From the NCBI GenBank assembly GCA_965222605.1, contig OZ244960.1, positions 1,248,001 to 1,312,000 of the forward strand: a stretch of 64,000 bases of DNA. The letters are read 5' to 3'. Origin of the DNA: Candidatus Latescibacterota bacterium (GTDB lineage: Bacteria; Latescibacterota; UBA2968). Below the pieces are notes generated by a model that had not been told where the DNA came from, searched no databases, and saw only the letters and a program-made list of their open reading frames with translations. This document shows, piece by piece, positions 991-36,040 of this stretch. How positions within the stretch are numbered: the first letter of the stretch is position 1; each line of letters begins with the position of its first letter. A program made the position numbers and the translations under genes.

Positions 991-996
991 TAACGA

Positions 997-1794: not shown

Positions 1795-1796
1795 AT

Positions 1797-4797: not shown

Positions 4798-4938
4798 TCA
4801 ATCCGTCCACGTCACCGTTACAGTGAATGTTTGGCTGGATGGTACCCCCTCATCAGGGGTCACTGTCACTGTGATCATTGCATTGCTCGCACTCATTGGC
4901 GTGATTGCCACGACTGAACCTACCTGGTCCACCACCAC
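4798..4938 (-). pseudogene. Out-of-frame half Ig-like domain at the 3' end of the giant gene
   Basis: VVVDQVGSVVAITPMSASNAMITVTVTPDEGVPSSQTFTVTV resembles DVSGSVVTITPVAEGTATITVIARDVAGSNQTAEQTIAVTV in the 1273-aa ORF. Confidence 0.55.
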
Positions 4939-7900
4939 ACCCTCACGGGAATGGTCTGCGTAGCCGTTGTGCCATCCGTAGAGGTCGCTGTCACTATGAT
5001 CTGGCACTCCTTTATAAAAGGTTGTATCACCAGATCAGGGGGAACCTCGCTCGTCGCCTGGATTGTCACGTTTGAACCGCGCACTCTCACCGTGGCAACG
5101 TCTTCATCGGATGACGTTGCGCTGTAGGCGTCTATACGCTTGTTATACTTCACTTCGAAGTAGTCCGACATGTCCACAGTTGCCTCACTACTGAACCCTG
5201 GAAATGGCGATCTCACATGTAGGAGCACCCTATCAATGCTGTTCTTAGACAAAACAGTTGGCACTGAAAGCAACCACGTACCTTTAAGTGTTTGCCACTC
5301 TGATTTAAGATTATCAAGCCAAGCCGGAACGTTACCAAGACGCAATTCGAGTTGTGCTTCAAAAAGCGATTCGGGTTTAACCGCGCTGCCGTTGGATTCG
5401 AGAACTTCGAGGGTGCTTTCTCTAAAACTGGCTGAATCGCCGTGAAAACCAACAATAATAGGTTTCACATAATAACCATAACTTCCAGAACTCGGCCAAA
5501 AATTATAATATTTTTCACTACTGACATCATGCGTGAAATTCCAGATCACCAGATGCCTGTAGTGGTTTGGCATATCCTTTTCAGCACCACCACTTCCGTC
5601 CAGTTTGCCGCGATTAATGCGATCATACAGATTGGCATAGGGTCGGGAAGCATGGCAATCAATTGGCTGATCTCTACTCTGATCAGCACGCCAATAAACA
5701 TCACCAGTCGTGGAAGACATCACATTTATGCCATGGATGTGATCTGCGAGGTCTTCTACAAGCCCAAACCATATACCGTAATTACCCACAGACCTCATAG
5801 AATAATGGGCATCATTGCCTGCTGTCGTGACCTGATAAACGGAGATGGCTGCACTATCCTTAACTTGAAGAGCGCGATTGACGTTGACAAAGGAGAGACG
5901 CCGCGCCCAAGAATTGACGCATCCGCGAAACAAGACCAAACTCCAGCCACTATTATGCCTGTCATTTTTGTGATGTTCAAAATCCTCCAACCACGAACCG
6001 TGAAAACTGATGTCTTCAACCCCAACTTCCTCGAGAAGAGGCGAATAGTCCCGCACCGTCCAACCATGATCTGCTTCGATCCGAAGGGTATGTATAGGTT
6101 CATTCAGGCGCACCCGATTGTCCCGAATTTCGGCAATGCTGTGCTTTTCAGTCACAGCAACGTCACCCCATGAGTCGCGTTTCGAATATGGGGCAAAAAA
6201 CTCATTAGTGACTGTGTTACTTCTCATACTCAGCACAATCCACTGATCCACCCTGAGTTGGGACGTGTTCGCCACTGTGATCCAGAAGGTTTCTCGAGCA
6301 GCATCTTCTGTAATCCTGGCTAACTCGGTGCTCGTCTCGTTCCATTTTACCCAGTAACTGTGCGGCCAATTAGAGGGCTTAAAAGTGAACATATAGGGAT
6401 TTGTGTAAAGTGTACCGGGAATGGATGGGGGCAGGTGGTTTACCTGTCGTATGACCGTGCCTCCACTTTCACGGCCGCTTCCCCTCAGAACGATATTACT
6501 CTTGCCAATGTAGATGGGTTTGTTGATCATATTGCCTTCGCCATCATCTTCTTTATCAGTATTGGTACTGACCAAAAATTCACCGGGTGGAAAAAAGATA
6601 ATACCACTGCCGTTGGCCTCTGCCGCATCAATGGCAGCCTGAATAGCACTCTGGTCAGACATATTATCATTGGGTACAGCACCATAATCTGTGACGGCGA
6701 ACTGTTGATGCGTGACATTGGGAACAGGTCTTTCAAAATAGTGATATCCCGAGTAGGAAAAATCGGGTAAAATGGGTTGTCTCTTATTCTTTTTGGCCTC
6801 CATAAAATCTGCCCAGGTGAACGATATATCATCTGCTGAAACCGAATGGTTTTGCGCCCATTCTCTGGCGAGTACCTCTTTTTCACGCTGATTGCCAAAT
6901 TCCTCCCAAGTAACACTTTCATCACCATTGAAGTCCGCTTTCAAGACGGGTAATTGGTCCGATGTCCCAAAGGTCCAGGGGGCGTCAGTGTTACCATCAT
7001 TATCTACATCTTCATCGTCCCAGGTCACGTAAATGGTCGGGTTCGCATCGGTCGGAGATCTCATCTCTGATAGCCACTTCCGCCATATTTCTATTGCTGT
7101 TCCATCACCAACGCCATCCGATCTGTAGCCATTTCTTTCCTGCCAGTAGTTGTCGCTAAAAGTTGTTCCTGAACGGGGATCACTCGCCCCGCCGAAAAAT
7201 CCACCAACACGACCACTCCTATTATCCCACACCCTACAAGTCGTGTAGCATATTCTGACGGTGCCAGTATCATTGTTCCACCCAACTAAACCACCAGCGT
7301 TCCTTGAGGTATTCACTATCCCCGTTGAATAGCATGCCATCAAAGTACCGTCATTCTGCCCAACCAGCCCACCTCCGTTCTCGGCATTGTCCACACTCAC
7401 ATTTGCATAGCTCGTGTAAATTCTGCCTTCGTTAAACCCTACCAGACCACCAACCACCCCACCACCCCCCACTTGTCCCGTCACATAACACACAAAAACC
7501 TTACCAGTCATATGACCGACCAAGCCACCAACCCATTGGCGGCCCGTCACATTGACCCCGACGAGTCCCACGTTTTTGATCTCGCCTGACGACTTGCCAA
7601 ACAAACCTGCTTCGTAGCTGTCTCGTTGAATGAACAGATGGGAAATGGTATGACCATTCCCGTGAAACGTAGTCGTGAATAAGTCTGAAGCGGTCCCTAT
7701 TGGCTCCCATCCATCACTTGATTTTATGGTCCAATCTGTGTTCACACTCCCTGAAGCATAGCTATCTGAGTCATTGAAATCCAAATCCTTCGTTAGTTCG
7801 TAGCCCGTGCAGATAGACGGACAGCCCATCCCAGAAGGCGCAAGGGGAAATGCCAAATCATAACTATTCGCATTGTTCGCATCGTCAACTGCGCCGTTAC

Positions 7901-10900
7901 CATCCAGGTCATAGCGGATGGCGTTTAGCTGCTCCAGGTTGGATACCTCAATGAGGCCATCATCGTCATCGTCGTAGTCGTCAAATAACGTCGCTCCTTC
8001 CAGTTCAGACCATTCTCCCTGCCCTTCTCCATTCGTTGCCCGCACCTGAACATCATATTCCGTAGCTGCATCCAAATCAATGAGTGTCAAGTACGCAGCC
8101 TTACCTGTATAATTCCCATTAGAAAACACACCCAATCTACGGAATCTATATTGCACTTCGTAATCGGCAATATCAGCCCAATGAATTGTATTTGTAACAT
8201 CGTCCGTCCAATATATCCTATACCTTCCGCCATCGAGAACAATATCCTGCGAAGATAAAAGTTCTGAGGTAATAAAATCTTCAACATTGCTTCCGTCAAG
8301 ATCAGCACGCCGAATTACATTTCTATTGCTACGGTCCGTCCAATACACCTTATCCCCGAACAAGTCCAATGCAATTTTATCTGCATTTATTCTACCTGAT
8401 CCGCCCGCATCGTTGCTCATAACAATATCTTCGATATTACTCCCATCAAGGTCAGCACGTCGAACTTTCCGATCAATATGATTATTCGTCCAGTAAATCT
8501 TGCCCCCTGAAACATCCAACGCAATATCCCGTGGAAAACCAACATCAAGGATAATTTCACTATTACTCCCATCAAGGTCGGCACGTCGAACACCATTCAC
8601 GATGTTCAAACCCTCGCTATGTGTCCAATAAATCTTGCCCCCTATAATATCCAATGCGATGTTCGCCACAACAGTTGGCCACCCTGTAGGCACAATATCT
8701 TCGATATCGCTTCCGTCAAGGTCAGCACGTCGAACTTTACCCGCTTCTGTCCAGTAAATCTGGCCCCTTACAAAATCCACCGCAATGTCTCCAGGACTAT
8801 TCAACCCCGTAGTAATAATGTTTTCAATATTGCTTCCGTCAAGATCAGCGCGTTGTATTCTGCTTCCGCCACTATCTATCCAATATATTTTATTTTTCAA
8901 CAAATCCAACGCAAGATCACGCGGCTCAGCCAGCGGAGTAGATAACTCATACGCCATAGCCATCATCAAGCTATTCCAAGTTGACCCCGTTACCTTCAGT
9001 TCACTAAGCGCAGGTGCCGTCACATCCGAAACAGTAACGGTAATCGCCTGTTCTGTCGTCAATGATTGATCCCCTAAATTATTTGTCGCCGTGACCTCAA
9101 CGATATATGAGTTATCCATATTATCATCCGACGCCATTTCATAGTCCGGTGCAGTCTTGAAGGTCAACAAATCTATATCTGAAAAAAATGAAAACTTATC
9201 CGCATCAACTCCACCCGTAATGGCGTAACTACTCGCATTACTCGCGGATACTATACCCACAAAAGGATTGTTTTCACCTACATCAAAACTCGTAACATTG
9301 AAAGACGGCGAAACCCTTTCTCTCGTCATACCTTCACCCGATTGAGACCATCCACCCTCCGCTTCCGAACTCACTACACGCACCTGTATATCATACTCAG
9401 TATTGCCATCCAAACCTACAATCGTCATAGTGTTATCCGTACCCATATAATCCGCATCGGCAAATGTATTCGCCCCACTAATGCTATATTGCACATCATA
9501 GTCAATATCAAGATCAGCACGTCCAATCTTACGCGTCCCACCATCCGACCAGTATATCTTGTTCCCCGCAACATCCAACGCGATACCCCGTGGATTATCC
9601 AACCCCATAGTGATAACATCTTCAACATTGCTCCCGTCAAGATCAGCACGTCCAATCTTACGCGTCCCACCATTCGACCAGTATATCTTGTTCCCCGCAA
9701 CATCCAACGCGATACCCCATGGATTATCCAACCCCATAGTGATAACATCTTCAACATTGCTCCCGTCAAGATCAACTTTCCGTATCTTATCTGTCCCAAC
9801 ATCCAACCAGTATATCTCACCATGCAATATATCCAACGCGATACCCCGTGGATTATCCAACCCCATAGTGATAACATCTTCAACATTGCTCCCGTCAAGA
9901 TCAGCATACCGAATCTTATTTGCATTACTATCCGTCCAATATATTTTTCCCCCTGCAATATCCAATGCAATACCCTTCATAGAACCCGACGTAACAATAG
10001 TTTCCACATTACTCCCATCAAAATCGGCTCTCTGTATTCTATTCGGACTGGTCTCCGCCCAGTATATCTTCTCCTCAGAAGTATCCAACGCAATATCCAG
10101 TAGATATCTATCACCGATAACCTCTTCAACATTACTCCCATCAAAATCAGCTCTCCATATTCCCGATAATCCGTCCGCCCAGTATATCTTCTCCTCAGAA
10201 GTATCCAACGCAACCGCAAGCAACCCCTGAGCCTGAGAATCAAATTCAAATTTTGCGGTCTCCCATGTTACCGTCACACTGCTTGGCGTTGTCTCCGTAA
10301 CTATTGGGGCATTCGGTATCTCCGGCACATGGCGCACATCCACAACGACAACTTCAATCGTATCCGTCGCGGTCAGTGTCCGAACACCCGCACCACTTGT
10401 CGCCATAACCACCACTATATATTCATTGTCTTCTACACCACTAACAGGCATAATGCTTTCAACATCTGTGGGTAACTCATAATTTGGAGCAACTTTAAAT
10501 CGTAATGCACCTGTACCTGAAACAATTGAGAAATGGTCTTGATCAGCACCGCCAACAATCGCATAACCTGTAACGCTATCCTCACTATCAGCATCATCAG
10601 CGACGACTACACCCACATTTATCTTATTTTCCAGTATGTCGAACCTCGCGATACTGGTGAAAGACGGTGCGCTGTTCTGCGTTGTTATCCCTTCAACTGT
10701 ATCTGACCACGCACCTGTACCTTCATCATTCTCTGCGCGCACCTGTATATCATAGCCCTTGTTCTGCGCCAAGCTACTAATCGTGTATTCAAGACTGCCA
10801 CTTGTCCAGGCATCTGTAACCACTGTCCACCTGGTATCATCTGCTTTATCTGTTGCACTTGCATTACTGGGAATATGGCGCACATCATAGGCACTGATCG

Positions 10901-13900
10901 CTGGCCCTGTATTATCAGGTACTGTCCAACTCACCTTCAGACTGTTAAGCGTCACTGCTGCTATCGTCGGAACAGATGGCTTACCTGGTGCTTCGTTCAC
11001 ATCACTCACTGTCACAGTAAGCGTCTGTGTCGTTGTCAGAACACGATCACCTGCCCCACCCGTCGCTGTAACGATCACGATGTATTCATTGTTATTGGCT
11101 GCATTGGCTGGGTCTGCGCTGACAACATCCTCTGGACGTTCATAATCCAGCGCAGTCTTGAAGCTCAACACGCCCGTATTTGAAACAATCTCGAACTGAT
11201 CCTTATCTACACCACCTGTGATAGCATAGCCTGTGATAGTGTCATCACTATCGGCATCTGTCGCTGTCACTGTCACAACCGATGTGCTGTTCTCATTCAC
11301 GGAGATCGCTGATACGCTTGTGAACACGGGTGCTACATCGGCCTTTGTCGTCCCTGCAACGGAGGTTGACCATCCACTCGTCCCTTCATCATTACTCGCA
11401 CGCACTTGAATATCATAACCTGTGTTCTGACTTAGGCTGCCAATCGTGTATGCAAGATTACCTCCATTATTACTCGTCCACGCATCCGCAACCTCTGTCC
11501 ACTTCGTATCATCTGCCTTATCAGAGGTACTGGCACTACTGAGGATGTAGCGCATGTCATAACTACTAATATCAGGACCTGTGTTCGTCGGCGCGCTCCA
11601 CTGCACCTTCAGGCTATTCAATGTTACTTCTGCCACTGTCGGGGTATCAGGCACACCGGGTGCTTCGTTCACATCACTCACTGTCACCGTAAGCGTCTGT
11701 GTAGCGGTCAACGCACGATCACCTGTACCACTCGTCGCTTCTACCACCACAATGTACTTATTATTCTTCTCAGCATTGGCTGGGTCTGTGCTGACAACAT
11801 CCTCTGGACGCTCATAGTCCAGCGCAGTCTCGAAGCTCAACACGCCGGTCTGGTCATCAATCTCAAACTGGTCCTTATCTACACCCCCCGTAATCGCATA
11901 GCCCTTGATGCTATCATCGTTATCAACATCTGTCGCTGTCACTGTCACAATAGCACCTGTGCTGTTCTCATTCACGGAGATCGCTGATACGCTTGTGAAC
12001 ACGGGCACTACATTGGCCTTTGTCGTCTCTGCAACCGACGACGACCAACTACTCGTCCCTTCATCGTTCTTTGCACGCACTTGAATATCATAGCTTGTAT
12101 TCTGACTCAGACTACCAATCGTGTATGCAAGATTACCTCCATTATTACCCGTCCACGCATCCGCATCCACCGTCCACTTGGCGTCATCTGCCTTATCTGT
12201 CTCACTGGCACTGCTGAGGATATAACGCACATCATAAGCACTGATCGCAGGTCCCGTGTTCGTCGGGGCTGTCCAACTGATCTTTAAACTATTAAATGTC
12301 GCCTCTGCTACTGTCGGTGCTGAAGGCGTGCCAGGGACTTCTGTCTCATCTGTCACCGTCACGGTAAGCGTCTGCGTCGCTGTCAACGCACGATCACCCG
12401 CACCACTCGTCGCTTCTACAATCACGATGTATTCATTATTACCCGCTACATTGGCTGGGTCTGCAACCGCGACATCAGTGGGCGACTCATAGTTCGGGGC
12501 CACATTGAACGTCAGCACACCGGTTGCTTCCACAATAGAGAACGCTGACCCATCTGCGCCACCTGTAATCTCATACCCTGTGATCGTATCATCTGTATCT
12601 GCATCCGTCGCACTCACCGTGACAATAACCCCTGTGATGTTCTCACTGACTGACAGAGGCTGGACAACCACGAAGACTGGGGCCTGATTCTGCGTGGTCA
12701 TACCAGCCTTTGTAGCTGACCAATCACTGGTCCCCTCATCATTCTCTGCGCGAACCTGCACATCATAGCTTGTGTTCTGACTCAGACTACCAATCGTGTA
12801 TTCCAAAGAACCACTCGTCCACGCATCTGTCACCTCTGTCCAATTGCTATCATCTGTTTTATCTGTGTCACTCGCACTGGTCAAGATATAACGCACATCG
12901 TAGGCACTAATATCAGGACCCGTGTTCGTCGGCGCACTCCAACTGATCTTCAAGCTGTTAAACGTCGCTTCTGCTATCGTCGGTGCAGCAGGCGCAGCAG
13001 GCGGTTCAGTCACATCTGTCACTGTGATGGTAAGCGTCTGTGTTGCTGTCAGTTCCCGATCACCTTCACCACTCGTCGCTTCAACGAACACAATGTATTC
13101 ATTGTTGTCCGCATTATTCTCAGGATCAGTTACTGCTACATCCTTTGGATCCTCATAATTGGGCACTGCCTTGAACGTCAGCACACCGGTAGATGCTCCA
13201 ATAGAGAACTGCTCCCCATCCGCGCCAGTAGCAATCCCATAACTTTCTATATCATCACCCGTATCTGCATCACTCGCCGTCACCGTCACGATATCCGCCG
13301 TGCTGTTCTCACTCAGAGTGAACGATGATGCACTCGTGATAACTGGTGCGACATTGGCCTGTGTCATACCTGCAACAGTATCTGACCAACCACTGGTCCC
13401 TTCATCATTCTCTGCACGCACCTGCACATCGTAGCTTGTGTCCTGGTCCAGACTGCCAATCGTGTATTCGAGATTACCACCATTACCACTTGTCCACGCA
13501 TCCTCAACCTCTGTCCAGTTGGCATCTACATTCTCATCTGCACTGGTCGGAATGTAGCGTATATCATAACTACTGATCGCAGGTCCCGTGTTCGTCGGCG
13601 CACTCCAACTCACCTTCAGGCTATTAAATGTGGCTTGTGCTATCGTCGGGGCTGCGGGCTTACCGGGTGCCTCATTGTCCTGATCCGTCACGGTGATGGT
13701 AAGCGTATCTCTTGCCGTCAACGCTCGGGCATTCTCCCCACCTGTCGCTTCAACAATCACGATGTATTCATTATTATCCGCTGCATTGTCATTATCTGAA
13801 TTGTTCGCATCAGTAAAAGCCACATCCTCAGGATCCTCATAGTTTGGGGAGGACTTGAACGTCAATACACCGGTCGCTTCACCAAGAGAGAACTGTGACC

Positions 13901-22900: not shown

Positions 22901-25886
22901 TATCATCTGTCTTATCAGAGGCACTGGCACTGGTCAGAATGTAGCGTATATCATAGATAGAGATAGAGGGCCCTGTATTCGTCGGGGCTGTCCAACTCAC
23001 CTTCAGGCTGTTAAATGTGGCTTGTGCTATCGTCGGGGCTGCGGGCTTACCGGGTGCCTCATTGTCCTGATCCGTCACCGTGATCGTCAGCGTATCTCGC
23101 GCTGTCAACGCTCGACTATCCGCACCACCCGTTGCTTCAACGAACACAATGTATTCATTGTTGTCCCCATCATTAGCCGGGTCTGTAACCGCTACATCGG
23201 TAGGTGCTTCATAGTTGGGTGCTACCTTGAAAGTCAACACGCCCGTCGCTTCAACGATGGAGAACTGTGACCCATCTGCACCGGTAATGATCGCATACCC
23301 TGTGATGCCGTCATCCTCATCTGCATCTGTTGCTACTACTGTGCCAACTGTTGTGGCTGTCGTGATGTTCTCCGATACGGTGAACGATGAGACACTTGTA
23401 ATGACTGGCGCCTGGTTCTGTATCGTTGTCCCTGTCACCGATGAAGACCACGCGCTTGTCCCTTCATCACTCTCTGCGCGAACCTGCACATCGTAGCTCG
23501 TGTTCTGGTCCAGGCTACTAATCGTGTATTCGAGATTGCCACCATTACCACTTGTCCACGCATCCTCAACCTCTGTCCAGTTGGCATCTACATTCTCATC
23601 GGCACTGGTCAGGATATAACGCACATCATAACCACTAATATTTGGTCCCGTATTCGTCGGTGCTGTCCAGTCTATCTTCAAGCTGTTCACCGTTGCTTCT
23701 GCTACTGTCGGGGCAGCAGGCGTGCCAGGGACTTCTGTCACATCACTCACCGTCACTGTAAGCGTCTGCGTTGCCGTCAACGCACGATCACCCACACCAC
23801 TCGTCGCTTCTACAATCACGATGTATTCATTATTACCCGCTACATTGGCTGGGTCTGCAACCGCGACATCAGTGGGCGACTCATAGTTCGGGGCTACATT
23901 GAACGTCAGCACACCGGTTGCTTCCACAATAGAGAACGCTGACCCATCTGCAGCGTCAACTATCCCATACCCTGTGATGTCGTCCTCAGCATCATCGTCC
24001 GTCGCACTGACTGTCACAATGGCTGTGATGATGTTCTCACTCACGGTGATCGGCGCGACAGCAGCGAAGACCGGTCCCTGGTTTTCTACCGTCACCCCTG
24101 CAACAGTATCTGACCATGCACCCGTCCCTTCATCATTCTCTGCTCGCACTTGCACATCATAGCTTGTGTTCTGGTCCAGGCTGCCAATCGTGTATTCGAG
24201 ATTGCCACCATTACCACTCGTCCAGGCATCCGCATCCACCGTCCACTTGGCGTCATCTGTCGCATCTGCACTGGTCAGAATATAGCGCACATCATAGGCA
24301 CTAATATCAGGACCCGTGTTCGTCGGCGCACTCCATTCCACCTTCAGACTGTTAAATGTCGCCTCTGCTATCGTCGGTGTAGCTGGCACACCGGGTGCTT
24401 CGCCAGCCACATTACTCACTGTCACCGTAATCGTCTGCGTTGCTGTCAACGCACGATCACCCACACCACTCGTCGCTTCTACCACCACGATATACGCGTT
24501 ATCCGTATCACTATCCCCTGGACGCTCAAAGTCCGGCGCAGTCTTGAAAGTCAACACACCTGTACCTGACACAATCTCGAACTGTGACTCATCTGCGCCA
24601 CCTGTAATCTCATACCCTGTGATATTGTCGTCAGTATCACTGTCTGCTGCGGTCACTGTGACAACATCTGCTGTGCTGTTCTCACTGACTGAAATCGTTG
24701 ACGTACTCGAGATGACTGGTGCGACATTGGCCTGTGTCACACCTGCAACAGTATCTGACCAACCACTGGTCCCCTCATCATTCTCTGCGCGAACCTGCAC
24801 ATCGTAGCTTGTGTTCTGACTCAGGCTACCAATCGTGTATTCCAAAGAACCACTTGTCCACGCATCTTCAACCTCTGTCCAGTTGGCATCTACATTCTCA
24901 TCCGCACTGGTCAGGATATAACGCATATCATAACCACTAATATCTGGTCCCGTGTTCGTCGGGGCTGTCCAGTTCACCTTCAGGCTGTTCACCGTCGCCT
25001 CTGCTATCGTCGGGGCAGCAGGCGTGCCAGGGACTTCTGTCTCATCTGTCACTGTCACTGTAATCGTCTGCGTTGCCGTCAACTCACGTGTACCTGTTCC
25101 ACTCGTCGCCTCAACCACTACGATATACTCATTATTGCCCGATGCATTCACAGGATCTGCACTAACAACATCCCCTGGACGCTCAAAGTCCGGCGCAGTC
25201 TTGAAAGTCAACGCACCGGTCTGGTCATCAATCTCAAACTGAGACTCATCTGCGCCACCTGTAATCTCATACCCTGTGATATTGTCGTCAGTATCACTGT
25301 CTGCTGCTGTTACAGTGACAACATCTGCTGTGCTGTTCTCACTCACTGAAATCGTTGACGTACTCGAGATGACTGGTGCGACATTCGCACTCGTGGTACC
25401 ACTCACGGTATCTGACCAGTCACCCGTCCCTTCATCGCTCTCTGCTCGCACCTGTATATCATACCCTGTATCAGGCTCTAATGAACCAATCACATATTCA
25501 AGATTACCACCAGTACCACTCATCCAGGCATCTTCCACCTCTGTCCAGTTATTGTCATCTGCCTTATCTGTCTCACTGGCACTGCTGAGGATATAACGCA
25601 CATCATAAGCACTGATCGCAGGTCCCGTGTTCGTCGAGGCTGTCCAACTGATCTTTAAACTATTAAATGTCGCCTCTGCTACTGTCGGTGCTGAAGGCGT
25701 GCCAGGGACTTCTGTCTCATCTGTTACTGTCACTGTAAGCGTCTGCGTTGCCGTCAACCCACGATCACCCGTGCCACTCGTCGCTTCTACAATCACGATG
25801 TATTCATTATCACCCGCTCCACTTGCAGGGGCTGTGCTAACAACATCAGTAGGTGCCTCATAGTTCGGGGCTACCTTGAAAGTCAA
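4920..25886 (-). CDS. Giant surface protein, C-terminal part: FN3+cadherin repeats, two YWTD propellers, GLUG region, DUF4955-like beta-helix domain, Ig-like domain
   Basis: 6988-aa open frame; cadherin motifs (VSEN, ATDAD, PNYE), FN3 motifs (SLKVxW, YDVRY, TSYDVQVRA, GxWS), 12 IYWxD-type repeats, VGGLVG repeats, LPDFSYSGYH domain; starts mid-repeat at a frameshift. Confidence 0.9.
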   Translation of the reverse strand: MTFKVAPNYEAPTDVVSTAPASGAGDNEYIVIVEATSGTGDRGLTATQTLTVTVTDETEVPGTPSAPTVAEATFNSLKISWTASTNTGPAISAYDVRYILSSASETDKADDNNWTEVEDAWMSGTGGNLEYVIGSLEPDTGYDIQVRAESDEGTGDWSDTVSGTTSANVAPVISSTSTISVSENSTADVVTVTAADSDTDDNITGYEITGGADESQFEIDDQTGALTFKTAPDFERPGDVVSADPVNASGNNEYIVVVEATSGTGTRELTATQTITVTVTDETEVPGTPAAPTIAEATVNSLKVNWTAPTNTGPDISGYDMRYILTSADENVDANWTEVEDAWTSGSLEYTIGSLSQNTSYDVQVRAENDEGTSGWSDTVAGVTQANVAPVISSTSTISVSENSTADVVTVTAADSDTDDNITGYEITGGADESQFEIVSGTGVLTFKTAPDFERPGDSDTDNAYIVVVEATSGVGDRALTATQTITVTVSNVAGEAPGVPATPTIAEATFNSLKVEWSAPTNTGPDISAYDVRYILTSADATDDAKWTVDADAWTSGNGGNLEYTIGSLDQNTSYDVQVRAENDEGTGAWSDTVAGVTVENQGPVFAAVAPITVSENIITAIVTVSATDDDAEDDITGYGIVDAADGSAFSIVEATGVLTFNVAPNYESPTDVAVADPANVAGNNEYIVIVEATSGVGDRALTATQTLTVTVSDVTEVPGTPAAPTVAEATVNSLKIDWTAPTNTGPNISGYDVRYILTSADENVDANWTEVEDAWTSGNGGNLEYTISSLDQNTSYDVQVRAESDEGTSAWSSSVTGTTIQNQAPVITSVSSFTVSENITTATTVGTVVATDADEDDGITGYAIITGADGSQFSIVEATGVLTFKVAPNYEAPTDVAVTDPANDGDNNEYIVFVEATGGADSRALTARDTLTITVTDQDNEAPGKPAAPTIAQATFNSLKVSWTAPTNTGPSISIYDIRYILTSASASDKTDDTKWTEVEDAWTSGNGGNLEYTIGSLDQNTSYDVQVRAESDEGTGAWSDTVAGVTVENQGPVFAAVAPITVSENIITAIVTVTATDADEDDNITGYAIVDDADGAQFSIGASTGVLTFKTAPNYEAPEDVQFTDSNNSANDNVAGNNEYIVIVSATGGAGARVLTAMDTIKVTVMDVDTEAPGTPDAPTITQATFNSLKVNWTAPTNTGPAISAYDVRYILTSADETDDANWTVITDAWTSGTGGALEYTISPLAQDTEYDVQILAESDEGTSDWSDTVKGMTSVNVAPVITSTSSFTVSENITTATTVGTVSATDADADDSITGYAIVTGADRSQFSLGEATGVLTFKSSPNYEDPEDVAFTDANNSDNDNAADNNEYIVIVEATGGENARVLTVRDTLTITVTDVTEPPAAPAVPTIAEATFNSLKVEWTAPTNTGPAISAYDIRYILTSADENVDANWTEVEEVWTSGNGGNLEYTISSLDQNTSYDVQVRAENDEGISDWSDTVAGVIQANVAPVISSASTFTVSENSTADVVTVTAADSDTDDNITGYEITGGADGSQFEIDDQTGALTFKTAPDFEHPGDVVSADPVNASGNNEYIVVVEATSGTGTRELTVTQTITVTVTDETEVPGTPSAPTIAEATFNSLTVSWTAPTNTGPEISAYDVRYILSSASETDKADDTKWTEVEDAWTSGTGGALEYTISPLAQNTEYDVQIFAESDEGTSGWSDSVEGMTTENVAPVITLIDAISVAENSTGDIVTISASDADTGDDIESYGIATGADGGQFSIGADSGVLTFSASPNYEAPTDVLVSDPASGAGDNEYIVYVEATGGEDARALTARDTLTVTVTDVTEPPAAPAAPTIAEATFNSLKVNWTAPTNTGPAISSYDIRYIPTSADENVDANWTEVEEVWTSGNGGNLEYTISSLDQNTSYDVQVRAENDEGISDWSDTVAGVIQANVAPVISSASTFTVSENSTADIVTVTASDADTGDDIESYGIATGADGEQFSIGASTGVLTFKAVPNYEDPKDVAVTDPENNADNNEYIVFVEATGGENARALTARDTLTITVTDQDDEVPGQPATPTIAEATFNSLKVEWSAPTNTGPDISAYDVRYIFSSASETDKADDSKWTVDADAWTSGNGGNLEYTIGSLDQNTSYDVQVRAENDEGTGAWSDTVAGVTVENQGPVFAAVAPITVSENIITAIVTVSATDDDAEDDITGYGIVDAADGSAFSIVEATGVLTFNVAPNYESPTDVAVADPANVAGNNEYIVIVEATSGVGDRALTATQTLTVTVSDVTEVPGTPAAPTIAEATVNSLKIEWTAPTNTGPDISGYDVRYILTSVDETDDANWTEVEDAWTSGNGGNLEYTISSLDQNTSYDVQVRAESDEGTSAWSSSVTGTTIQNQAPVITSVSSFTVSENITTATTVGTVVATDADEDDGITGYAIITGADGSQFSIVEATGVLTFKVAPNYEAPTDVVSTAPASGAGDNEYIVIVEATSGVGDRELTATQTLTVTVTDETEVPGTPSAPTIAEATFNSLKVVWNAPTNTGPTISAYDVRYILTSASETDDANWTEVEDAWTSGSLEYTIGSLDQNTSYDVQVRAKNDEGTSDWSATKAGMTTQNQAPVFVVVQPQSVNENSTGAIVTVTATDADEDDNITGYAIVDDADGAQFSIGASTGVLTFKTAPNYEAPEDVQFTDSNNSANDNVAGNNEYIVIVSATGGAGARALTAMDTIKVTVMDVDTEAPGTPDAPTIAEATFNSLKVEWSAPTNTGPDISAYDVRYILTSADETDDAKWTVDADAWTSGDGGTLEYTISSLSQNTSYDVQVRAENDEGISGWSDTVAGVTVENQGPVFAAVAPITVSENIITAIVTVSATDDDAEDDITGYGIVDAADGSAFSIMEATGVLTFNVAPNYESPTDVAVTDPANVAGNNEYIVVVSATGGASDRELTATQTLTVTVTDVTEVPGTPSAPTIAEATFNSLKVVWNAPTNTGPAISAYDVRYILTSADETDDANWTEVEDAWTSGSLEYTIGSLDQNTSYDVQVRAENDEGTGAWSDTVSGTTSANQAPVITSASSFTVSENSTADIVMVTASDADTDDDIESYGIATGADGSAFSIGASTGVLTFKVAPNYEDPKDVAVTDPENDADNNEYIVFVEATGGADSRALTARDTLTITVSDVTEAPGQPATPTIAEATFNSLKNSWTAPTNTGPAISAYDIRYILTSADETDDTKWTEVEDAWTSGSLEYTIGSLNQNTSYDVQVRAESDEGTSAWSSSVTGTTIQNQAPVITSVSSFTVSENITTATTVGTVVATDADEDDGITGYAIITGADGSQFSIVEATGVLTFKASPNYEDPKDVAVTDPENDADNNEYIVFVEATGGAGDRELTTTQIITVTVTDVNEAPDQPATPTIAEATFNSLKVEWSAPTNTGPDISAYDVRYILTNADETDDANWTVVEDAWTSGSLEYTIGSLDQNTSYDVQVRAENDEGISGWSDTVAGVTVENQGPVFAAVAPITVSENIITAIVTVSATDDDAEDDITGYGIVDAADGSAFSIVEATGVLTFNVAPNYESPTDVAVADPASGAGDNEYIVIVEAASGAGDRELTATQTLTVTVSDVETEAPGVPATPTIAEATFNSLKVEWTAPENTGPSITAYDVRYILSSASDVDKANDNNWTEVEDAWTSGNGGNLEYTISSLDQNTSYDVQVRAENDEGISGWSDTVAGVTQANVAPVISSTSTISVSENSTADVVTVTAADSDTDDNITGYEITGGADESQFEIDDQTGALTFKTAPDFERPGDSDTDNAYIVIVEATSGVGDRELTATQTITVTVSNVAGEAPGTPATPTIAEATFNSLKVQWSAPTNTGPSITAYDVRYILSSEDENVDANWTVEDDAWTSGDLTYTIENLSSNTSYDVQVRAENAEGTSNWSATKAGMTTQNQAPVFVVVQPQSVNENSTGAIVTVTATDADGDDNITGYAIVTGADGSQFSLGEATGVLTFKSSPNYEDPEDVAFTDANNSDNDNAADNNEYIVIVEATGGENARALTARDTLTITVTDQDNEAPGKPAAPTIAQATFNSLKVSWSAPTNTGPAISSYDIRYIPTSADENVDANWTEVEDAWTSGNGGNLEYTIGSLDQDTSYDVQVRAENDEGTSGWSDTVAGMTQANVAPVITSASSFTLSENSTADIVTVTASDADTGDDIESYGIATGADGEQFSIGASTGVLTFKAVPNYEDPKDVAVTDPENNADNNEYIVFVEATSGEGDRELTATQTLTITVTDVTEPPAAPAAPTIAEATFNSLKISWSAPTNTGPDISAYDVRYILTSASDTDKTDDSNWTEVTDAWTSGSLEYTIGSLSQNTSYDVQVRAENDEGTSDWSATKAGMTTQNQAPVFVVVQPLSVSENITGVIVTVSATDADTDDTITGYEITGGADGSAFSIVEATGVLTFNVAPNYESPTDVAVADPANVAGNNEYIVIVEATSGAGDRALTATQTLTVTVTDETEVPGTPSAPTVAEATFNSLKISWTAPTNTGPAISAYDVRYILSSASETDKADDAKWTVDADAWTGNNGGNLAYTIGSLSQNTSYDIQVRAKNDEGTSSWSSSVAETTKANVVPVFTSVSAISVNENSTGAIVTVTATDVDNDDSIKGYAITGGVDKDQFEIDDQTGVLSFETALDYERPEDVVSTDPANAEKNNKYIVVVEATSGTGDRALTATQTLTVTVSDVNEAPGVPDTPTVAEVTLNSLKVQWSAPTNTGPDISSYDMRYILSSASTSDKADDTKWTEVADAWTSNNGGNLAYTIGSLSQNTGYDIQVRASNDEGTSGWSTSVAGTTKADVAPVFTSVSAISVNENSTSVVTVTATDADSDDTITGYAITGGVDKDQFEIVSNTGVLSFKTALDYERPEDVVSADPANAANNNEYIVIVTATGGAGDRVLTTTQTLTVTVSDVNEAPGKPSVPTIAAVTLNSLKVSWTVPDNTGPAISAYDVRHIPSNASATDKADDTRWTVVTDAWTSGSLEYTISSLAQNKGYDIQVRAENDEGTGAWSDTVEGITTQNSAPSFTSIARFDILENKINVGVVVADDADSEDSVTGYAIVGGADQDHFSIVSGTGALRFKVAPNYELPTDVESIMPVSGVEDNEYIVVVMATSGAGVRTLTATDTIEVVVVDVRHVPEIPNAPIVTETTPSSVTVTWETAKFEFDSQAQGLLAVALDTSEEKIYWADGLSGIWRADFDGSNVEEVIGDRYLLDIALDTSEEKIYWAETSPNRIQRADFDGSNVETIVTSGSMKGIALDIAGGKIYWTDSNANKIRYADLDGSNVEDVITMGLDNPRGIALDILHGEIYWLDVGTDKIRKVDLDGSNVEDVITMGLDNPWGIALDVAGNKIYWSNGGTRKIGRADLDGSNVEDVITMGLDNPRGIALDVAGNKIYWSDGGTRKIGRADLDIDYDVQYSISGANTFADADYMGTDNTMTIVGLDGNTEYDIQVRVVSSEAEGGWSQSGEGMTRERVSPSFNVTSFDVGENNPFVGIVSASNASSYAITGGVDADKFSFFSDIDLLTFKTAPDYEMASDDNMDNSYIVEVTATNNLGDQSLTTEQAITVTVSDVTAPALSELKVTGSTWNSLMMAMAYELSTPLAEPRDLALDLLKNKIYWIDSGGSRIQRADLDGSNIENIITTGLNSPGDIAVDFVRGQIYWTEAGKVRRADLDGSDIEDIVPTGWPTVVANIALDIIGGKIYWTHSEGLNIVNGVRRADLDGSNSEIILDVGFPRDIALDVSGGKIYWTNNHIDRKVRRADLDGSNIEDIVMSNDAGGSGRINADKIALDLFGDKVYWTDRSNRNVIRRADLDGSNVEDFITSELLSSQDIVLDGGRYRIYWTDDVTNTIHWADIADYEVQYRFRRLGVFSNGNYTGKAAYLTLIDLDAATEYDVQVRATNGEGQGEWSELEGATLFDDYDDDDDGLIEVSNLEQLNAIRYDLDGNGAVDDANNANSYDLAFPLAPSGMGCPSICTGYELTKDLDFNDSDSYASGSVNTDWTIKSSDGWEPIGTASDLFTTTFHGNGHTISHLFIQRDSYEAGLFGKSSGEIKNVGLVGVNVTGRQWVGGLVGHMTGKVFVCYVTGQVGGGGVVGGLVGFNEGRIYTSYANVSVDNAENGGGLVGQNDGTLMACYSTGIVNTSRNAGGLVGWNNDTGTVRICYTTCRVWDNRSGRVGGFFGGASDPRSGTTFSDNYWQERNGYRSDGVGDGTAIEIWRKWLSEMRSPTDANPTIYVTWDDEDVDNDGNTDAPWTFGTSDQLPVLKADFNGDESVTWEEFGNQREKEVLAREWAQNHSVSADDISFTWADFMEAKKNKRQPILPDFSYSGYHYFERPVPNVTHQQFAVTDYGAVPNDNMSDQSAIQAAIDAAEANGSGIIFFPPGEFLVSTNTDKEDDGEGNMINKPIYIGKSNIVLRGSGRESGGTVIRQVNHLPPSIPGTLYTNPYMFTFKPSNWPHSYWVKWNETSTELARITEDAARETFWITVANTSQLRVDQWIVLSMRSNTVTNEFFAPYSKRDSWGDVAVTEKHSIAEIRDNRVRLNEPIHTLRIEADHGWTVRDYSPLLEEVGVEDISFHGSWLEDFEHHKNDRHNSGWSLVLFRGCVNSWARRLSFVNVNRALQVKDSAAISVYQVTTAGNDAHYSMRSVGNYGIWFGLVEDLADHIHGINVMSSTTGDVYWRADQSRDQPIDCHASRPYANLYDRINRGKLDGSGGAEKDMPNHYRHLVIWNFTHDVSSEKYYNFWPSSGSYGYYVKPIIVGFHGDSASFRESTLEVLESNGSAVKPESLFEAQLELRLGNVPAWLDNLKSEWQTLKGTWLLSVPTVLSKNSIDRVLLHVRSPFPGFSSEATVDMSDYFEVKYNKRIDAYSATSSDEDVATVRVRGSNVTIQATSEVPPDLVIQPFIKECQIIVTATSTDGTTATQTIPVRVWWWTR

Positions 25887-27000
25887 CGCACCGGTCTGGT
25901 CTCAAACTGAGACTCATCTGCGCCACCTGTAATCTCATACCCTGTGATATTGTCGTCAGTATCACTGTCTGCTGCTGTTACAGTGACAACATCTGCTGTG
26001 CTGTTCTCACTCACTGAAATCGTTGACGTACTCGAGATGACTGGTGCGACATTGGCCTGTGTCACACCTACAACAGTATCTGACCATCCACTGGTCCCCT
26101 CATCATTCTCTGCGCGAACCTGCACATCGTAGCTTGTGTTCTGACTCAGGCTACCAATCGTGTATTCCAAAGAACCACTTGTCCACGCATCTTCAACCTC
26201 TGTCCAGTTGGCATCTACATTCTCATCCGCACTGGTCAGGATATAACGCACATCATAAGCACTAATATTTGGTCCTGTGTTTGTCGGTGCTGTCCAGTCT
26301 ATCTTCAAGCTGTTCACCGTTGCTTCTGCTATCGTCGGTGTAGCAGGCGTGCCAGGGACTTCTGTCTCATCTGTCACTGTCACTGTAAGCGTCTGCGTTG
26401 CCGTCAACTCACGATCACCCACACCACTCGTCGCTTCTACCACCACGATGTATTCATTGTTATTGGCTGCATTGGCAGGGTCTGTAACCTCAACATCTGC
26501 AGGTGCCTCATAGTTGGGTGCCACCTTGAAAGTCAACACACCCGTTTGATCACCAATCTCGAACTGTGACCCATCTGCATCATTAACAATGCCATAACCC
26601 TCTATGCTGTCATCACTATCACCGTCTGTCGCTGTGACTGTACCAATGTCCCCTGTGCTGTTCTCACTGACTGAGATCGCCGATACATTCGTGAACACAG
26701 GTGCCTGATTCTGCTGCGTCGTCCCCATAACCGATGAAGACCACACACCTGTCCCCTCGTCATTCTTCGCTCGCACCTGTATCTCATAACCCGTGTTCTG
26801 CTCCAGGCCCGTGATCGTGGCACTCAAACCCGTGCCATCGTGAGGCCAAGAAGTGAAGTCACCACTGTTGCCGACCCGATACTGCACATCGTAAGCTGTG
26901 ATCGCAGGTCCCGTATTCGTCGGCGCTGTCCAACTTATGGTCAAGCTATTTAGCGTTGAGGCTGATACTGTCGGTACTGCTGGCTGACCCGGCACCTCGG
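10330..27000 (-). repeat. Tandem array of 25 FN3+cadherin units, about 670 nt each
   Basis: Counted 25 occurrences of the T[F/V/L]NSL FN3 motif at about 670-nt spacing; long near-identical DNA blocks, e.g. 18475-19450 vs 23215-24190. Confidence 0.9.
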
Positions 27001-29704
27001 TCACATCGGTCAAGGTGATCGTCACATCTATGCTTGCACGCCCACCTTGACCATCCGCCACACGCACCACCACTGAATAGCTATCTTTCACCTCATAGTT
27101 ATACGTCACACCGTCCGTCGTCTGAAGCTGCCCACTCGTTGAAACAATGGCAAAACTCGCTGCATCAGCCCCTTCCAGGCTATAGGTCAATGTCCCACCG
27201 TCACTGTCTGTCGCAACTACCGCGTCCCCTATATTCTCCCCCGCCACCGTGTTCTCAGCAAAACTGCGCGCTAGATCGACCTCGCTGAATATCGGAACCT
27301 GATTGGCCGATTTCACCTCTATGGAGAATATGAGTTCGGCACTGTTCCCGGCGCCATCCCTCGCTTGCCATTTATATTCCCTTGCCTCTGTTGCAACCCT
27401 CGGCGTGCCGCTAATCGTACGGGTTCCTACATCTATGATCAGACCATCAGGCAATGCCGGCGTGAGGGTATAGCCAATCGCAACATAGCCACCCGTCGCT
27501 TCGGGCAGTTGGAGATCGGTAATCTGTGTCCCTACTGTGTAAGTCTGATCCGGTAATGTCGCACCATCAAAACTCAGTTTCACATCCGCCTTGTTCACCG
27601 TCACTGCAATAGTCTGCTCGGCAGTCTGATTCGAGCCTGCTACATCTCGCGCAATCACTGTAATCGTCGCCGTGCCCTCAGCCACAGGTGTGATCGTCAC
27701 TACAGAACCCGACACATCCACCTTTGCAATGGCGTCATCACTCGACGCTGCCACGTATGTCAAATCATCGCCATCAGGATCAGAAAACCTGGCCGATACA
27801 TCTATTTTCAAGGCTTCGTCACCCATCTTCAGCGTCTGTGCCGCAAACCTTCCCACCGCCACAGGTGCGCGGTTGACACGCACGCCGCCAACCCCAAAGA
27901 GAGAGAACATATCGGTATAACCGCAGACCTCATCACCAGCCACACGCTGCCGCTCAAGCATTTCCCAGGCACTCTCGTAATGGACAATGACAGGATCAGA
28001 AATATTCTCAGGCACAGTCAGACAAATCTCCACAGATGCTTGCAACGCATCGCCGATATCAACATCCTGGTTATCGACCTGAGCCTTCAGGTCTATATCA
28101 AAAAGGGATGAACTGGCAGGAATGGCAAAACCCGCCTGAGCAGATACATCCGGGGCATCGGAAACCGCTATCTTGCCGACTTCTGCGAAGACGCCCTCGA
28201 TCTCCTCATGCGGGATACTAACAGGAAGAGCGGCGCGAGTGACAATGATTCTGCCCCCTTCACCTGTAAAAGGAGACAGGTCAATAACCGCATATGCTCT
28301 ATCGCCCTCACCCTGAAATTGTGCAAGCTTCGGTTCCTCTTTAGGTGGCTCATAGACCGGCGTACCCGAAACAGGCTCAGACCAATCGCTTGCGCCATCA
28401 CTGTTCCATGTGCGAACACGAACCTGATACAATTGACCATTGATCAAGTAGGGATCGTGATAACGAGGAACTTTTAACTCATGATAATAAACAGAGGTAT
28501 TGGTACGACCATAGATAGTCTTTCGATCCCCCCAGATGCCGTCTTCACCCTTGCGAATCTCGGCATGATACCCCCTTACTGGCGGTCTCCCACGCTCATC
28601 AGGCACCGTAGCGTAGTGGACGGTGAGGGACTCGTTGGCCGGAATAACCAGAAAATTCGACGGCGGTGAAGAGGGCGGTTCTTTCAAATCGTTAATTTTG
28701 ATGATCACCAAAAGGCGCGCTGTCCCCCCCTGACCATCGCTCACCTCAACAATCACGGAGTAGGTCGTCCGATATTCATAGTCATACGTGATGTCTTCCC
28801 GCGTCTGAAGCTGACCCGTGCGTGTGTCAATGGCAAAAAGATCGACATCCGTACCGCTGAGGTGGTAGGTCACAATATCGCCGTCAGCATCGGTCGCAGA
28901 GATAGGACTACCTATCAGTTCACTCCCCGGCGTGTTCTCATCTATAAAGTGTGTCACATAAGTCTCTGACGTGAAGACCGGTGCGTGATTTATCCATTTG
29001 CCATAGCTCTTGATAAAAATCAAGAAATCGTCTAACCCAATCTCACCATTCCCATTCAGGTCGTATTTTGCCTCATACTGCTCTTGACCTTCTTGATAGC
29101 CATACAACCCGATCAACAAAGAAAAGTCTTGAAAATCCACAAACCCACTCCCATCAAAATCCGGGGAAGGTGCTACAGCGACCTGTAGCACGACACGTAT
29201 GTTCAACATCACACTTTCAACTTGCCCACTGCGGCTAAGTTCGGCACGCACCAATAGAATCTCGGTCTGTGAAAAGGCATCTGTCGTGCGAAAGCGAATC
29301 GTGCCAACAAGACCGCTGTTGACCGTTGCAGACCCACTCAAAGAAGCTATGTTGATCTGCACAGAGCTTGGATTTGTACCCTCTGATACCCTCATATCAG
29401 GATTGGGCAATACATCACCTGCATCAAAATCCGTGTAAACAACCTGAGTGACATCGTATTCAAAACGTGCGGAAAGACCGCTCGCATTTTGAATATCTGT
29501 GCCAAAAATCTGAATGGAAACATCTTGATTGGGGGATACATCGAGAGAGTGGATACCCTGATCACCTTCAGAACCATCCAAACTTAGAGAAAGGGAAAAA
29601 CTGCTCGTCTGTGTGGATACAGACCACGGAGACATCAAGAGCATATAGCCCAGTAGGCTGGTAATACCAAGCGCGAAAGAGAGCGATTTAACCTGGAGTG
29701 TCAT
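25883..29704 (-). CDS. Giant surface protein, N-terminal part: signal peptide, cohesin-like, dockerin/EF-hand-like, cadherin, FN3 and Ig-like domains
   Basis: Hydrophobic N-terminus; DFDGSGFVDFQDF...YDLNGNGEIGLDDF; ends in a repeat unit cut by a 7-bp deletion at 25900/25901. Confidence 0.88.
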   Translation of the reverse strand: MTLQVKSLSFALGITSLLGYMLLMSPWSVSTQTSSFSLSLSLDGSEGDQGIHSLDVSPNQDVSIQIFGTDIQNASGLSARFEYDVTQVVYTDFDAGDVLPNPDMRVSEGTNPSSVQINIASLSGSATVNSGLVGTIRFRTTDAFSQTEILLVRAELSRSGQVESVMLNIRVVLQVAVAPSPDFDGSGFVDFQDFSLLIGLYGYQEGQEQYEAKYDLNGNGEIGLDDFLIFIKSYGKWINHAPVFTSETYVTHFIDENTPGSELIGSPISATDADGDIVTYHLSGTDVDLFAIDTRTGQLQTREDITYDYEYRTTYSVIVEVSDGQGGTARLLVIIKINDLKEPPSSPPSNFLVIPANESLTVHYATVPDERGRPPVRGYHAEIRKGEDGIWGDRKTIYGRTNTSVYYHELKVPRYHDPYLINGQLYQVRVRTWNSDGASDWSEPVSGTPVYEPPKEEPKLAQFQGEGDRAYAVIDLSPFTGEGGRIIVTRAALPVSIPHEEIEGVFAEVGKIAVSDAPDVSAQAGFAIPASSSLFDIDLKAQVDNQDVDIGDALQASVEICLTVPENISDPVIVHYESAWEMLERQRVAGDEVCGYTDMFSLFGVGGVRVNRAPVAVGRFAAQTLKMGDEALKIDVSARFSDPDGDDLTYVAASSDDAIAKVDVSGSVVTITPVAEGTATITVIARDVAGSNQTAEQTIAVTVNKADVKLSFDGATLPDQTYTVGTQITDLQLPEATGGYVAIGYTLTPALPDGLIIDVGTRTISGTPRVATEAREYKWQARDGAGNSAELIFSIEVKSANQVPIFSEVDLARSFAENTVAGENIGDAVVATDSDGGTLTYSLEGADAASFAIVSTSGQLQTTDGVTYNYEVKDSYSVVVRVADGQGGRASIDVTITLTDVTEVPGQPAVPTVSASTLNSLTISWTAPTNTGPAITAYDVQYRVGNSGDFTSWPHDGTGLSATITGLEQNTGYEIQVRAKNDEGTGVWSSSVMGTTQQNQAPVFTNVSAISVSENSTGDIGTVTATDGDSDDSIEGYGIVNDADGSQFEIGDQTGVLTFKVAPNYEAPADVEVTDPANAANNNEYIVVVEATSGVGDRELTATQTLTVTVTDETEVPGTPATPTIAEATVNSLKIDWTAPTNTGPNISAYDVRYILTSADENVDANWTEVEDAWTSGSLEYTIGSLSQNTSYDVQVRAENDEGTSGWSDTVVGVTQANVAPVISSTSTISVSENSTADVVTVTAADSDTDDNITGYEITGGADESQFETRPVR

Positions 29705-29820
29705 CTATCGATATCTTCAAAGAAGGGCTACTTGTAATGAGCACGATGTGGTTTACGTTGTGCATTTGGATCGAACGGGATTTGTCTGGGGTTGTTTGGC
29801 AGAACCTGTGAGACTTCGAT

Positions 29821-30271: not shown

Positions 30272-31123
30272 TTATACCTGAGCACTGACCTCACACACCT
30301 TCAAATTCGCATATTCGCCAATCAAAGGTGCCATCTGTCGAAAACCAATCTTGCCACCGCCCAGCAAAGGTCCATACGTCTGACCATCATCAACCCAGTG
30401 GAAAATCTTCAAATCGCGAATATAAAAAACAACCTCTGATCCGCATTTGATCAGCGTAATCGGGTATGGCGGTCTGGCATCGTCAACTGAAGGTAGAGGA
30501 TCGGCACCTTGACAGACCATGTGAAAACCATAACTCTTGCGCAAATTGCAAACCTGAAAAGCGCGTTCCTTGAGAGCCTTTCGCCGAAAATAAGACACGT
30601 GCAACGCATTGATATCGCTGCTGTGATACTGCTTGTATTCGCCAGCCCGCGGCGCCAATGACGAATCAAACACATCTTCACCCCCTCGCCCCAAAGCAGA
30701 AAAAAACAAAATGCACAACCCCGGCTCGCGCACCGGCCAAAAATCCCACGTCACGGCAATATCCGCTGGAAAATCTTCAGGACACCAGAAAACAAAATTT
30801 GCCGCCTGCCCTTCCCCGGGATCGCGGCGGTTCTCCATTCGCATGCGACCATTTGGAAAAGTGATTGCAGCATCTCCCTCCATCCGAAACCCTTCAATAT
30901 CTGACGCTGAAGACAGGGGATTGTCGTAAAGCAATTCGCCAAATTCAAAATTATCCATAACACCACTCCTGATGCGTTGACGTATTGGGTTCTTCGCCGC
31001 ATGAACAGCCTGCCTCAAAAACAGCGGCGCACTGCCAAAAGATACAGAAAACAATACCATATTGCTGCATTTTATAAACGCCCTGCGCGTCCATTCCATC
31101 ATTTTATCTCTCGTGTTATTCAA
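30272..31123 (-). CDS. YesU/DUF1961 family protein with an in-frame Tat-like leader; alternative start at 30958
   Basis: LYDNPLS...FRMEG, NFVFWCPEDFP, ALHVSYFRR, CNLRKS, GGKIGFRQMAP; TRRAFIK leader; AGGAG RBS before ATG 30958. Confidence 0.8.
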   Translation of the reverse strand: MNNTRDKMMEWTRRAFIKCSNMVLFSVSFGSAPLFLRQAVHAAKNPIRQRIRSGVMDNFEFGELLYDNPLSSASDIEGFRMEGDAAITFPNGRMRMENRRDPGEGQAANFVFWCPEDFPADIAVTWDFWPVREPGLCILFFSALGRGGEDVFDSSLAPRAGEYKQYHSSDINALHVSYFRRKALKERAFQVCNLRKSYGFHMVCQGADPLPSVDDARPPYPITLIKCGSEVVFYIRDLKIFHWVDDGQTYGPLLGGGKIGFRQMAPLIGEYANLKVCEVSAQV

Positions 31124-35800: not shown

Positions 35801-36040
35801 GAACCATAGCCGATCCTGGCTATCCAGGTGGATGGCAAAAACTCGGTCACTACACAAACCGTCCTGTTCGGTAAACGTCTCGAACTTGTCCCCATCAAAA
35901 TGGCTGACACCACTATCCCAGGTAGCAATCCAGAGACAACCCTTGTTGTCTTCGGCAATATGTTCGGTGCGCACTCCAGCCAGGCCATTGGCAAGGGAAT
36001 AAGTCCGCCAGGTGCCCTTTCTATCGAGTGACTTGATCAT
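32834..36040 (-). CDS. Sigma54-interacting regulator with N-terminal Reg_prop beta-propeller repeats and Y_Y_Y domain
   Basis: Repeated ED..G.LW(F/I)GT units, [12 protein letters not shown]...GDYTFQVRA, Walker [14 protein letters not shown], Walker [16 protein letters not shown], Fis-type HTH. Confidence 0.9.

Follow-up and report, generated by a model that had tools for sequence, protein, structure and literature searches.

The present analysis examines a giant gene in a 64,000-nucleotide stretch of the genome of a Candidatus Latescibacterota bacterium (contig OZ244960.1, forward-strand positions 1,248,001 to 1,312,000), here called the window, with positions counted from its first letter. 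The gene lies on the minus strand, as do all its domains below, and falls into two open reading frames (ORFs), of which ORF A (25883..29704, 1,273 amino acids [aa]) holds the N-terminal portion and ORF B (4920..25886, 6,988 aa) the remainder in a different frame; residues carry the prefix A or B accordingly. A preliminary description, made from the letters, had given a single ORF of 8,263 aa, which the assembly does not bear out, and public gene calls likewise enter the two ORFs separately. Reading through the break would give a protein of roughly 8,264 aa and 874 kDa. Taken as one gene, the sequence suggests a surface-displayed, stalked polysaccharide lyase for uronic-acid polysaccharides anchored by cohesin-dockerin contact, an explanation that as a whole falls just short of probable.

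The order of domains, with its coordinates, agrees with the preliminary description when mapped by Pfam, Atlas and structure or profile comparison. A Sec-type signal peptide (29612..29704, about residues 1-31, judged by eye) precedes a cohesin-like and a dockerin-like domain, a first cadherin and FN3 domains (28355..28987), a ZU5/FIIND/GAIN-like domain, and a Big_9 immunoglobulin (Ig) domain, a He_PIG Ig domain and a cadherin (27005..27874). There follow the stalk, two YWTD propellers, a GLUG-type region (6882..7982; Atlas score 0.95 to PF07581 clusters, no Pfam match), a beta-helix head and a C-terminal Ig domain (4938..5192), which belongs by repeat type with the internal Big_9 domain and is not a type IX tail. 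Searches for the usual alternatives, as before, gave no RTX motif (0 matches), no C-terminal LPxTG and no autotransporter hit.

The frame break

The frame is lost at 25899..25900, in a cadherin repeat that is 7 bases shorter there than its four intact paralogues in the gene; on the upstream side of the gap, 154 bases match one of the intact paralogues exactly. Three studies supplied four runs whose short-read contigs were aligned to window positions 25,450-29,800, two of these runs (X1 and X2) representing one sample that may be the source sample. Contigs of all four runs have 7 bases inserted at 25,899, which is not decisive because the paralogous repeats would give this too. Sampled 31-mers spanning the gap are single-copy in the assembly, so that a real deletion should yield a contig covering 25,910 without the 7 bases. 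No such contig occurs in X1 or X2; both have long pieces identical to the window, and all depth at 25,910 (138.2 and 97.2, respectively) comes from a contig with the 7 bases. One X4 contig (25,794-25,975) has the 7 bases and one other difference, at a depth about six times the single-copy level of that run, and Joint Genome Institute (JGI) metagenome contigs scanned for the sequence directly downstream of the gap gave no match. In our assessment the frameshift is quite probably an assembly error rather than a true mutation.

Some observations weigh against this. The read evidence consists of contigs, not raw reads, with a filter that drops some records; three other cohesin-dockerin giants of the genome (G000:C1 560368-565810, 1313591-1322645 and 1322649-1330697) are also broken, with small indels or a short duplication as the cause, and immediately beyond the end of the giant there is an insertion sequence, so that real gene decay is possible. 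An alternative explanation could be a true pseudogene in this strain, with the 1,273-aa base alone being made and the stalk and head not. This would fit the gap in the assembly, the other broken giants, the insertion sequence together with an out-of-frame Ig remnant after the stop codon, and the corresponding locus of genome G019, from which the giant is absent, but it would not account for X1 and X2 lacking any contig without the 7 bases, nor for ORF B staying open across 6,988 codons with all conserved head residues retained except three variable ones; we consider it improbable. The Ig remnant (window 4800-4925, minus strand) is half an Ig domain, and it is not found in G014, a genome with a syntenic giant. 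A second frameshift at the C-terminus was considered and rejected, as the G014 protein stops at the same place. The giant at 560368-565810 has its N-terminus in common with an intact PL29-like giant of 2,942 codons at 4036662.

Chimeric misassembly, named in the preliminary description as what would overturn it, was rejected: no exact internal repeat exceeds 458 bases, and the same architecture appears in G014 and in an independent fragment, P0263; this concerns the architecture rather than the exact number of stalk repeats, which short-read contigs do not reach. Upstream of the giant, one sigma-70-type promoter was found vs 1.5 expected by chance.

The head, the stalk and the ZU5-like domain

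The head (5307..6836) matches PF12708 and, as described earlier, DUF4955 (E 4e-42), for which a literature search returned no paper. It aligns with E 2.2e-93 to model positions 305-840 of NF058554, the BT3328 family, i.e. to the C-terminal 536 of 840 positions. This homology points to the C-terminal, presumed catalytic portion of the BT3328/PL29 family, of which the head is a putative member. BT3328, from Bacteroides thetaiotaomicron, is the founding member of polysaccharide lyase family PL29. In PMC6994673 and PMC9067506 it is presented as a surface lyase that acts on chondroitin sulfate and hyaluronan, its first 300 residues being a proposed spacer, and a modular PL29 in Segatella oris is the subject of bioRxiv 2026.10.07.757250. 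The structure model of the head is a confident right-handed beta-helix (pLDDT 94.6), whose nearest Foldseek matches, all with low TM-scores, are phage depolymerases, lyases and epimerases. Residues E280, H294, H295, H350, H374, H401, D411 and H431 are conserved in 120/120 separate homologues, whose named members are Bacteroidota, and the giant's head retains all conserved residues except three variable ones. The PL29-like head family is restricted within the phylum, occurring in 28 of 168 genomes, all within one taxonomic family (27/30 genomes of that family vs 0/137 others). The giant's genome has six PL29-like copies, the giant and five others, along with 154 sulfatase matches and 11 heparinase II/III-type matches.

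By its sequence, the head probably works like a PL29 lyase, on a substrate that may differ from that of BT3328, and it is likely to cut sulfated or other uronic-acid polysaccharides, of chondroitin- or hyaluronan-like type, by beta-elimination. Points against a lyase are that the head scores 314 bits vs a whole-model cut-off of 1,100 in NF058554, with the N-terminal spacer part absent; that its identity to the two longest named homologues is 31-34%; that beta-helix folds also include hydrolases, epimerases and adhesins; and that GH88, which follows PL29 in Bacteroides, has a single weak match in the genome, below its cut-off. Sequence and Foldseek searches of the PDB gave no solved PL29 structure.

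The stalk (10338..27001; A902 to B5183) is made of 25 strictly alternating FN3+cadherin pairs, the number given before, and within ORF B the mean pairwise identity of its repeats is 76% for FN3 and 65% for cadherin. Domains of these types measure about 4-4.5 nm, and 50 of them would give a length of 200-225 nm if straight, in agreement with the earlier figure of about 200 nm. The cadherins probably bind calcium, since a DxD and an LDRE-like motif are present in 23/23 of those in ORF B. The calcium-rigidified rod that had been proposed is weakly supported: a full cadherin calcium junction requires two neighbouring cadherins, and in the stalk no two are adjacent, each cadherin abuts FN3, and a DxN(D/E) linker follows in only 3/23. 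The G014 orthologue differs, with DxN(D/E) in 11/13 of its cadherin-cadherin linkers.

Two YWTD propellers are present, as described, and each has six blades. Propeller 1 (9513..10244) is nested within an FN3 domain, inserted after its first quarter, which the preliminary description does not mention, and after propeller 2 (8172..8939) comes an FN3 domain represented by its C-terminal two thirds; Sevenless/ROS1 have a similar FN3/YWTD nesting. The propellers appear accessory, because the G014 orthologue has none, so that of the earlier picture of a stalk with propellers and an enzyme head at its tip, the long secreted stalk and the BT3328/PL29-like head stand and the propellers do not form an essential part.

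The ZU5/FIIND/GAIN-like domain at the stalk base (27869..28357; A450-612) has no Pfam match and does not appear in the preliminary description. The Atlas lead was ZU5 (0.86), and the model (pLDDT 89) resembles ankyrin ZU5 (Z 8.7, root-mean-square deviation 3.4 over 125 residues) and CARD8 (Z 8.3), also CD97 and NLRP1, at modest Z values throughout. Every one of the top 16 structural matches is a ZU5, FIIND, GAIN or axonemal chain, and the best Foldseek match is NLRP1 (E 0.009); a ZU5-like profile run against PDB sequences gave no match. Phe600 (model residue 151), which precedes Ser601, aligns with NLRP1 residue 1212, the position of NLRP1 self-cleavage, and Phe-Ser is present in 11/12 close relatives. 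CARD8, according to PMC3210808, cleaves at Phe296-Ser297 with a need for His270 and modulation by Glu279; the spacing of His575 and Glu584, 25 and 16 residues ahead of Phe600, resembles this (the histidine standing 25 vs 26 residues before the Phe). The upstream histidine is present in 7/12 close relatives and varies among His, Arg and Tyr in 63 wider matches. Unlike the self-cleaving domains of the ZU5 superfamily (NLRP1/CARD8 FIIND, PIDD, GAIN), the domain in the giant is without an HFS or CxH motif; classical HFS self-cleavage was rejected, as Met precedes Phe-Ser in the giant and a His is there in none of the 12. Self-cleavage of the modelled domain is thus a doubtful possibility. PMC3482391 has already predicted that ZU5 domains act as release sites where they stand at the foot of large, enzyme-bearing surface proteins of bacteria.

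The locus and related giants

The giant belongs to a cluster of minus-strand genes with a DUF1961 gene (30272..31123) and a stand-alone BT3328/PL29-like gene of 563 aa (31127..32818), and a sensor propeller/sigma-54 activator (32834..36040, minus) lies upstream of it. Downstream are conserved genes for a beta-helix protein, a short-chain dehydrogenase and an amidohydrolase (139..3044). The stand-alone gene encodes a signal peptide and then a few residues resembling the first strand of the giant's cohesin, and it looks as if it might have arisen by loss of the base-stalk region. In G014 the cluster comprises the sigma-54 activator, the stand-alone head gene, DUF1961, the giant, the beta-helix protein, the dehydrogenase and the amidohydrolase. 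The G014 giant is a single frame of 6,395 codons with the same base, runs of three cadherins in its stalk, the GLUG region, the head and Ig, and the two giants are 46-74% identical by module (46% in the head) while three neighbour genes are 91-96% identical. In P0263 (1,943 aa) the succession of stalk, propeller, GLUG and head is likewise that of the giant, and the corresponding slot of G015 holds an 860-codon dockerin-cadherin-head frame.

Relatives with the same base and other tips include a 5,846-codon G014 paralogue with leucine-rich repeats and a paralogue in the giant's own genome with leucine-rich repeats and a peptidase M8-like region. This variety of tips on a shared base indicates that the giant is one member of a mix-and-match family in which, as read from sequence, one base is combined with varied heads and stalk lengths. 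At NCBI, close proteins are filed under Gemmatimonadota and under Candidatus Latescibacteria. Genome contigs scanned for conserved patterns gave three distant loci only.

The same exchangeability bears on an alternative in which the giant is chiefly an adhesin or tether: stalk, propellers and GLUG region would bind host matrix or other cells, and the head would be an exchangeable sugar-binding tip with little or no cutting. The leucine-rich-repeat and peptidase M8-like tips of the paralogues are consistent with this, as are the divergence of the head from that of G014 beside nearly unchanged neighbours, the five further PL29-like genes that the genome holds, and the enrichment of cadherin/FN3 genes in sponge symbionts, which PMC8163846 reads as attachment factors. 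It would not explain why the polar residues invariant in the family are retained in the head, nor the place of the gene in a conserved cluster holding a second PL29-like gene, and we judge it unlikely.

Some further observations concern the locus and its relatives. The insertion sequence near the giant is a DDE transposase at window 3430-4545 (plus strand), between the giant and the beta-helix gene; at the G014 locus no DDE transposase ORF of at least 250 aa was found. A row of NurA, HAS-barrel protein and HerA-like helicase genes occupies window 38765-42869 (minus strand). G014 also has frames of 8,739 codons (L098 2-19087) and 1,169 codons (L099 1405-11606) that end in FN3-cohesin-dockerin-cadherin, each with a type IX-tailed gene after it, and a giant in G010 (L108 2-12508) is made of repeats of a GLUG region plus two or three FN3 domains.

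The docking base, export and comparison with known systems

The cohesin-like domain (29177..29599; A36-176; Pfam E 1.3e-4) and the dockerin-like double EF-hand (28988..29173; A178-239; Pfam E 2.7e-4) were both recognized in the preliminary description and were found again. Dockerins are common in the genome, where 106 dockerin-like domains comprise 55 that are C-terminal, 29 N-terminal, 15 after an N-terminal cohesin and 7 internal, and 41/41 close genomes have 24-125 matches each. A tail of type IX type occurs on 15 genome ORFs; of the 106 dockerin ORFs, 2 have one. A second cohesin type, distinct from the giant's, is carried by five tail-bearing ORFs, three of 268-280 aa with nothing else and two large ones with dockerin, cohesin and tail; it has matches in 41/41 close genomes and in 104/168 of the phylum. 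SprA (TIGR04189) is present at 632 bits vs a cut-off of 200, 11 of 13 PorV-like matches are above cut-off, and no secretin was found in the genome. Among 85 longer head homologues, Pfam finds the type IX tail in 12, a dockerin in 13 and both in 0; lineage profiles find the tail in 19 and a dockerin in 2. Two tandem large proteins ending in dockerin, cohesin and type IX tail, with no further Pfam match (G000:C1 2629407-2638095), might form a surface layer or serve as the chief anchor.

We suggest that the giant, with no anchor or tail of its own, could be held at the surface by its dockerin on one of the five tail-bearing cohesin proteins, a step about which we are nearly evenly divided and which leans slightly to the negative. 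Through the cohesin that it carries, the giant may in turn bind more dockerin proteins. In this proposal the Sec-type signal would direct the giant for secretion and the dockerin would bind a tail-bearing cohesin protein, giving surface retention of a tail-less giant; the stalk would replace the 300-residue spacer of BT3328 and hold the head 200 nm or more from the cell, and the head would cleave uronic-acid polysaccharides by beta-elimination. Crossing of the outer membrane is the weakest step. For the export and anchoring of the giant, called unexplained in the preliminary description, the genome now offers a candidate route through SprA, cohesin-tail proteins and dockerin.

Several findings count against this route. 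The giant's Pfam matches are slightly below cut-off for dockerin (21.5 vs 22.9 bits) and cohesin (22.6 vs 24.1); no type IX tail matches on the giant by Pfam, NCBIfam or lineage profile, and the review PMC10202324 states that type IX export requires the tail. No scaffold with more than one cohesin turned up, both cohesin profiles giving one domain per ORF (16/16 and 5/5), with the proviso that distant cohesins could escape. PorU-like reaches 316 bits vs a cut-off of 420, and the motor/ring genes GldN, GldM and GldL have no match in the genome, but control genomes gave none either. Neutral in this respect is a complex prediction for the dockerin and the small cohesin with tail, which scored 0.13 vs a mark of 0.32, without folded controls.

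It may also be that the dockerin-like module serves only calcium binding or folding, or that it pairs with its own cohesin into chains, with export and anchoring by some other way, for example a signal anchor left uncleaved or free release to the medium. This would be in keeping with the dockerin directly behind the cohesin in 15/16 proteins of the giant's cohesin type, with the proline directly before the presumed cleavage site in some paralogues, and with a type IX system that looks incomplete. However, 99/106 dockerins are at or near a protein end, as is typical of docking tags, and nothing besides these two parts is found in the small cohesin+tail protein, whose identity across the genus is 82-96% in full-length matches; we think a non-docking role doubtful. 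A bolder version of the docking proposal is that the dockerin is a detachable type IX export tag, such that the small, highly conserved cohesin+tail proteins would bind about 100 tail-less, dockerin-tagged cargoes in the periplasm, carry them through SprA of a reduced type IX system and hold them outside. The ZU5/FIIND-like domain would then self-cleave at Phe600-Ser601, serving as a release point as the GAIN domain does in adhesion receptors, and shed stalk and enzyme into the matrix around the cell. We regard this as rather unlikely.

Each of the parts has precedent. Bacterial proteins of huge size that contain cadherin, Big and dockerin domains have been catalogued (PMC11573180), LDL-receptor (YWTD) repeats have been reported from Poribacteria (PMC3909097), and the PL29 spacer and the ZU5 bases were introduced above. 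The combination, and a tail-less cargo facing small cohesin+tail proteins, are absent from the searched literature; a literature and abstract-level search gave no paper on this architecture, and the ZU5 supplement of PMC3482391 may list similar proteins. Cellulosome-affiliated enzymes in Latescibacteria are noted in PMC7081726, citing Farag 2017, and the available part of PMC4454575 mentions neither cohesin nor dockerin. The closest docking system is that of Candidatus Stygibacter (Cloacimonadota), with dockerin-tagged secreted enzymes and a cohesin protein bearing a type IX-type tail, a cellulosome-like complex that in PMC8542988 is a prediction and not an experiment. Two differences are apparent. 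First, Stygibacter has a 3,755-aa multi-cohesin scaffold, whereas single-cohesin proteins, three of them of 268-280 aa, face 106 dockerin proteins here. Secondly, the cargo here is a giant that bears its own cohesin.

Judging by relatives in the literature (PMC8163846, PMC7081726), the organism may live in a sponge. Robbins et al. (PMC8163846) describe sponge symbionts as rich in eukaryote-like repeat proteins and poor in recognisable secretion systems, and a type IX translocon supplied through a cohesin-dockerin adaptor, if true, would answer how repeat proteins leave such symbionts. With these proteins, and with giant repeat adhesins such as LapA, SiiE and SprB, the giant shares a long Ig-type stalk with tip domains. 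Type I-secreted RTX adhesins have RTX nonapeptides and no Sec signal. The giant differs from the adhesins named here in being without an RTX motif and without a type IX tail, and in having a Sec-type signal and an N-terminal docking base. The likeness to BT3328 lies in the head; the differences are that some 7,600 residues, with cohesin and dockerin at their base, stand in place of a 300-residue spacer, and that no SusC/SusD pair is present among the scanned neighbour genes of the giant in the window. If the reading as a stalked lyase is true, this would be a gut-type glycosaminoglycan lyase on an exchangeable, very long stalk, restricted to one branch of the phylum.

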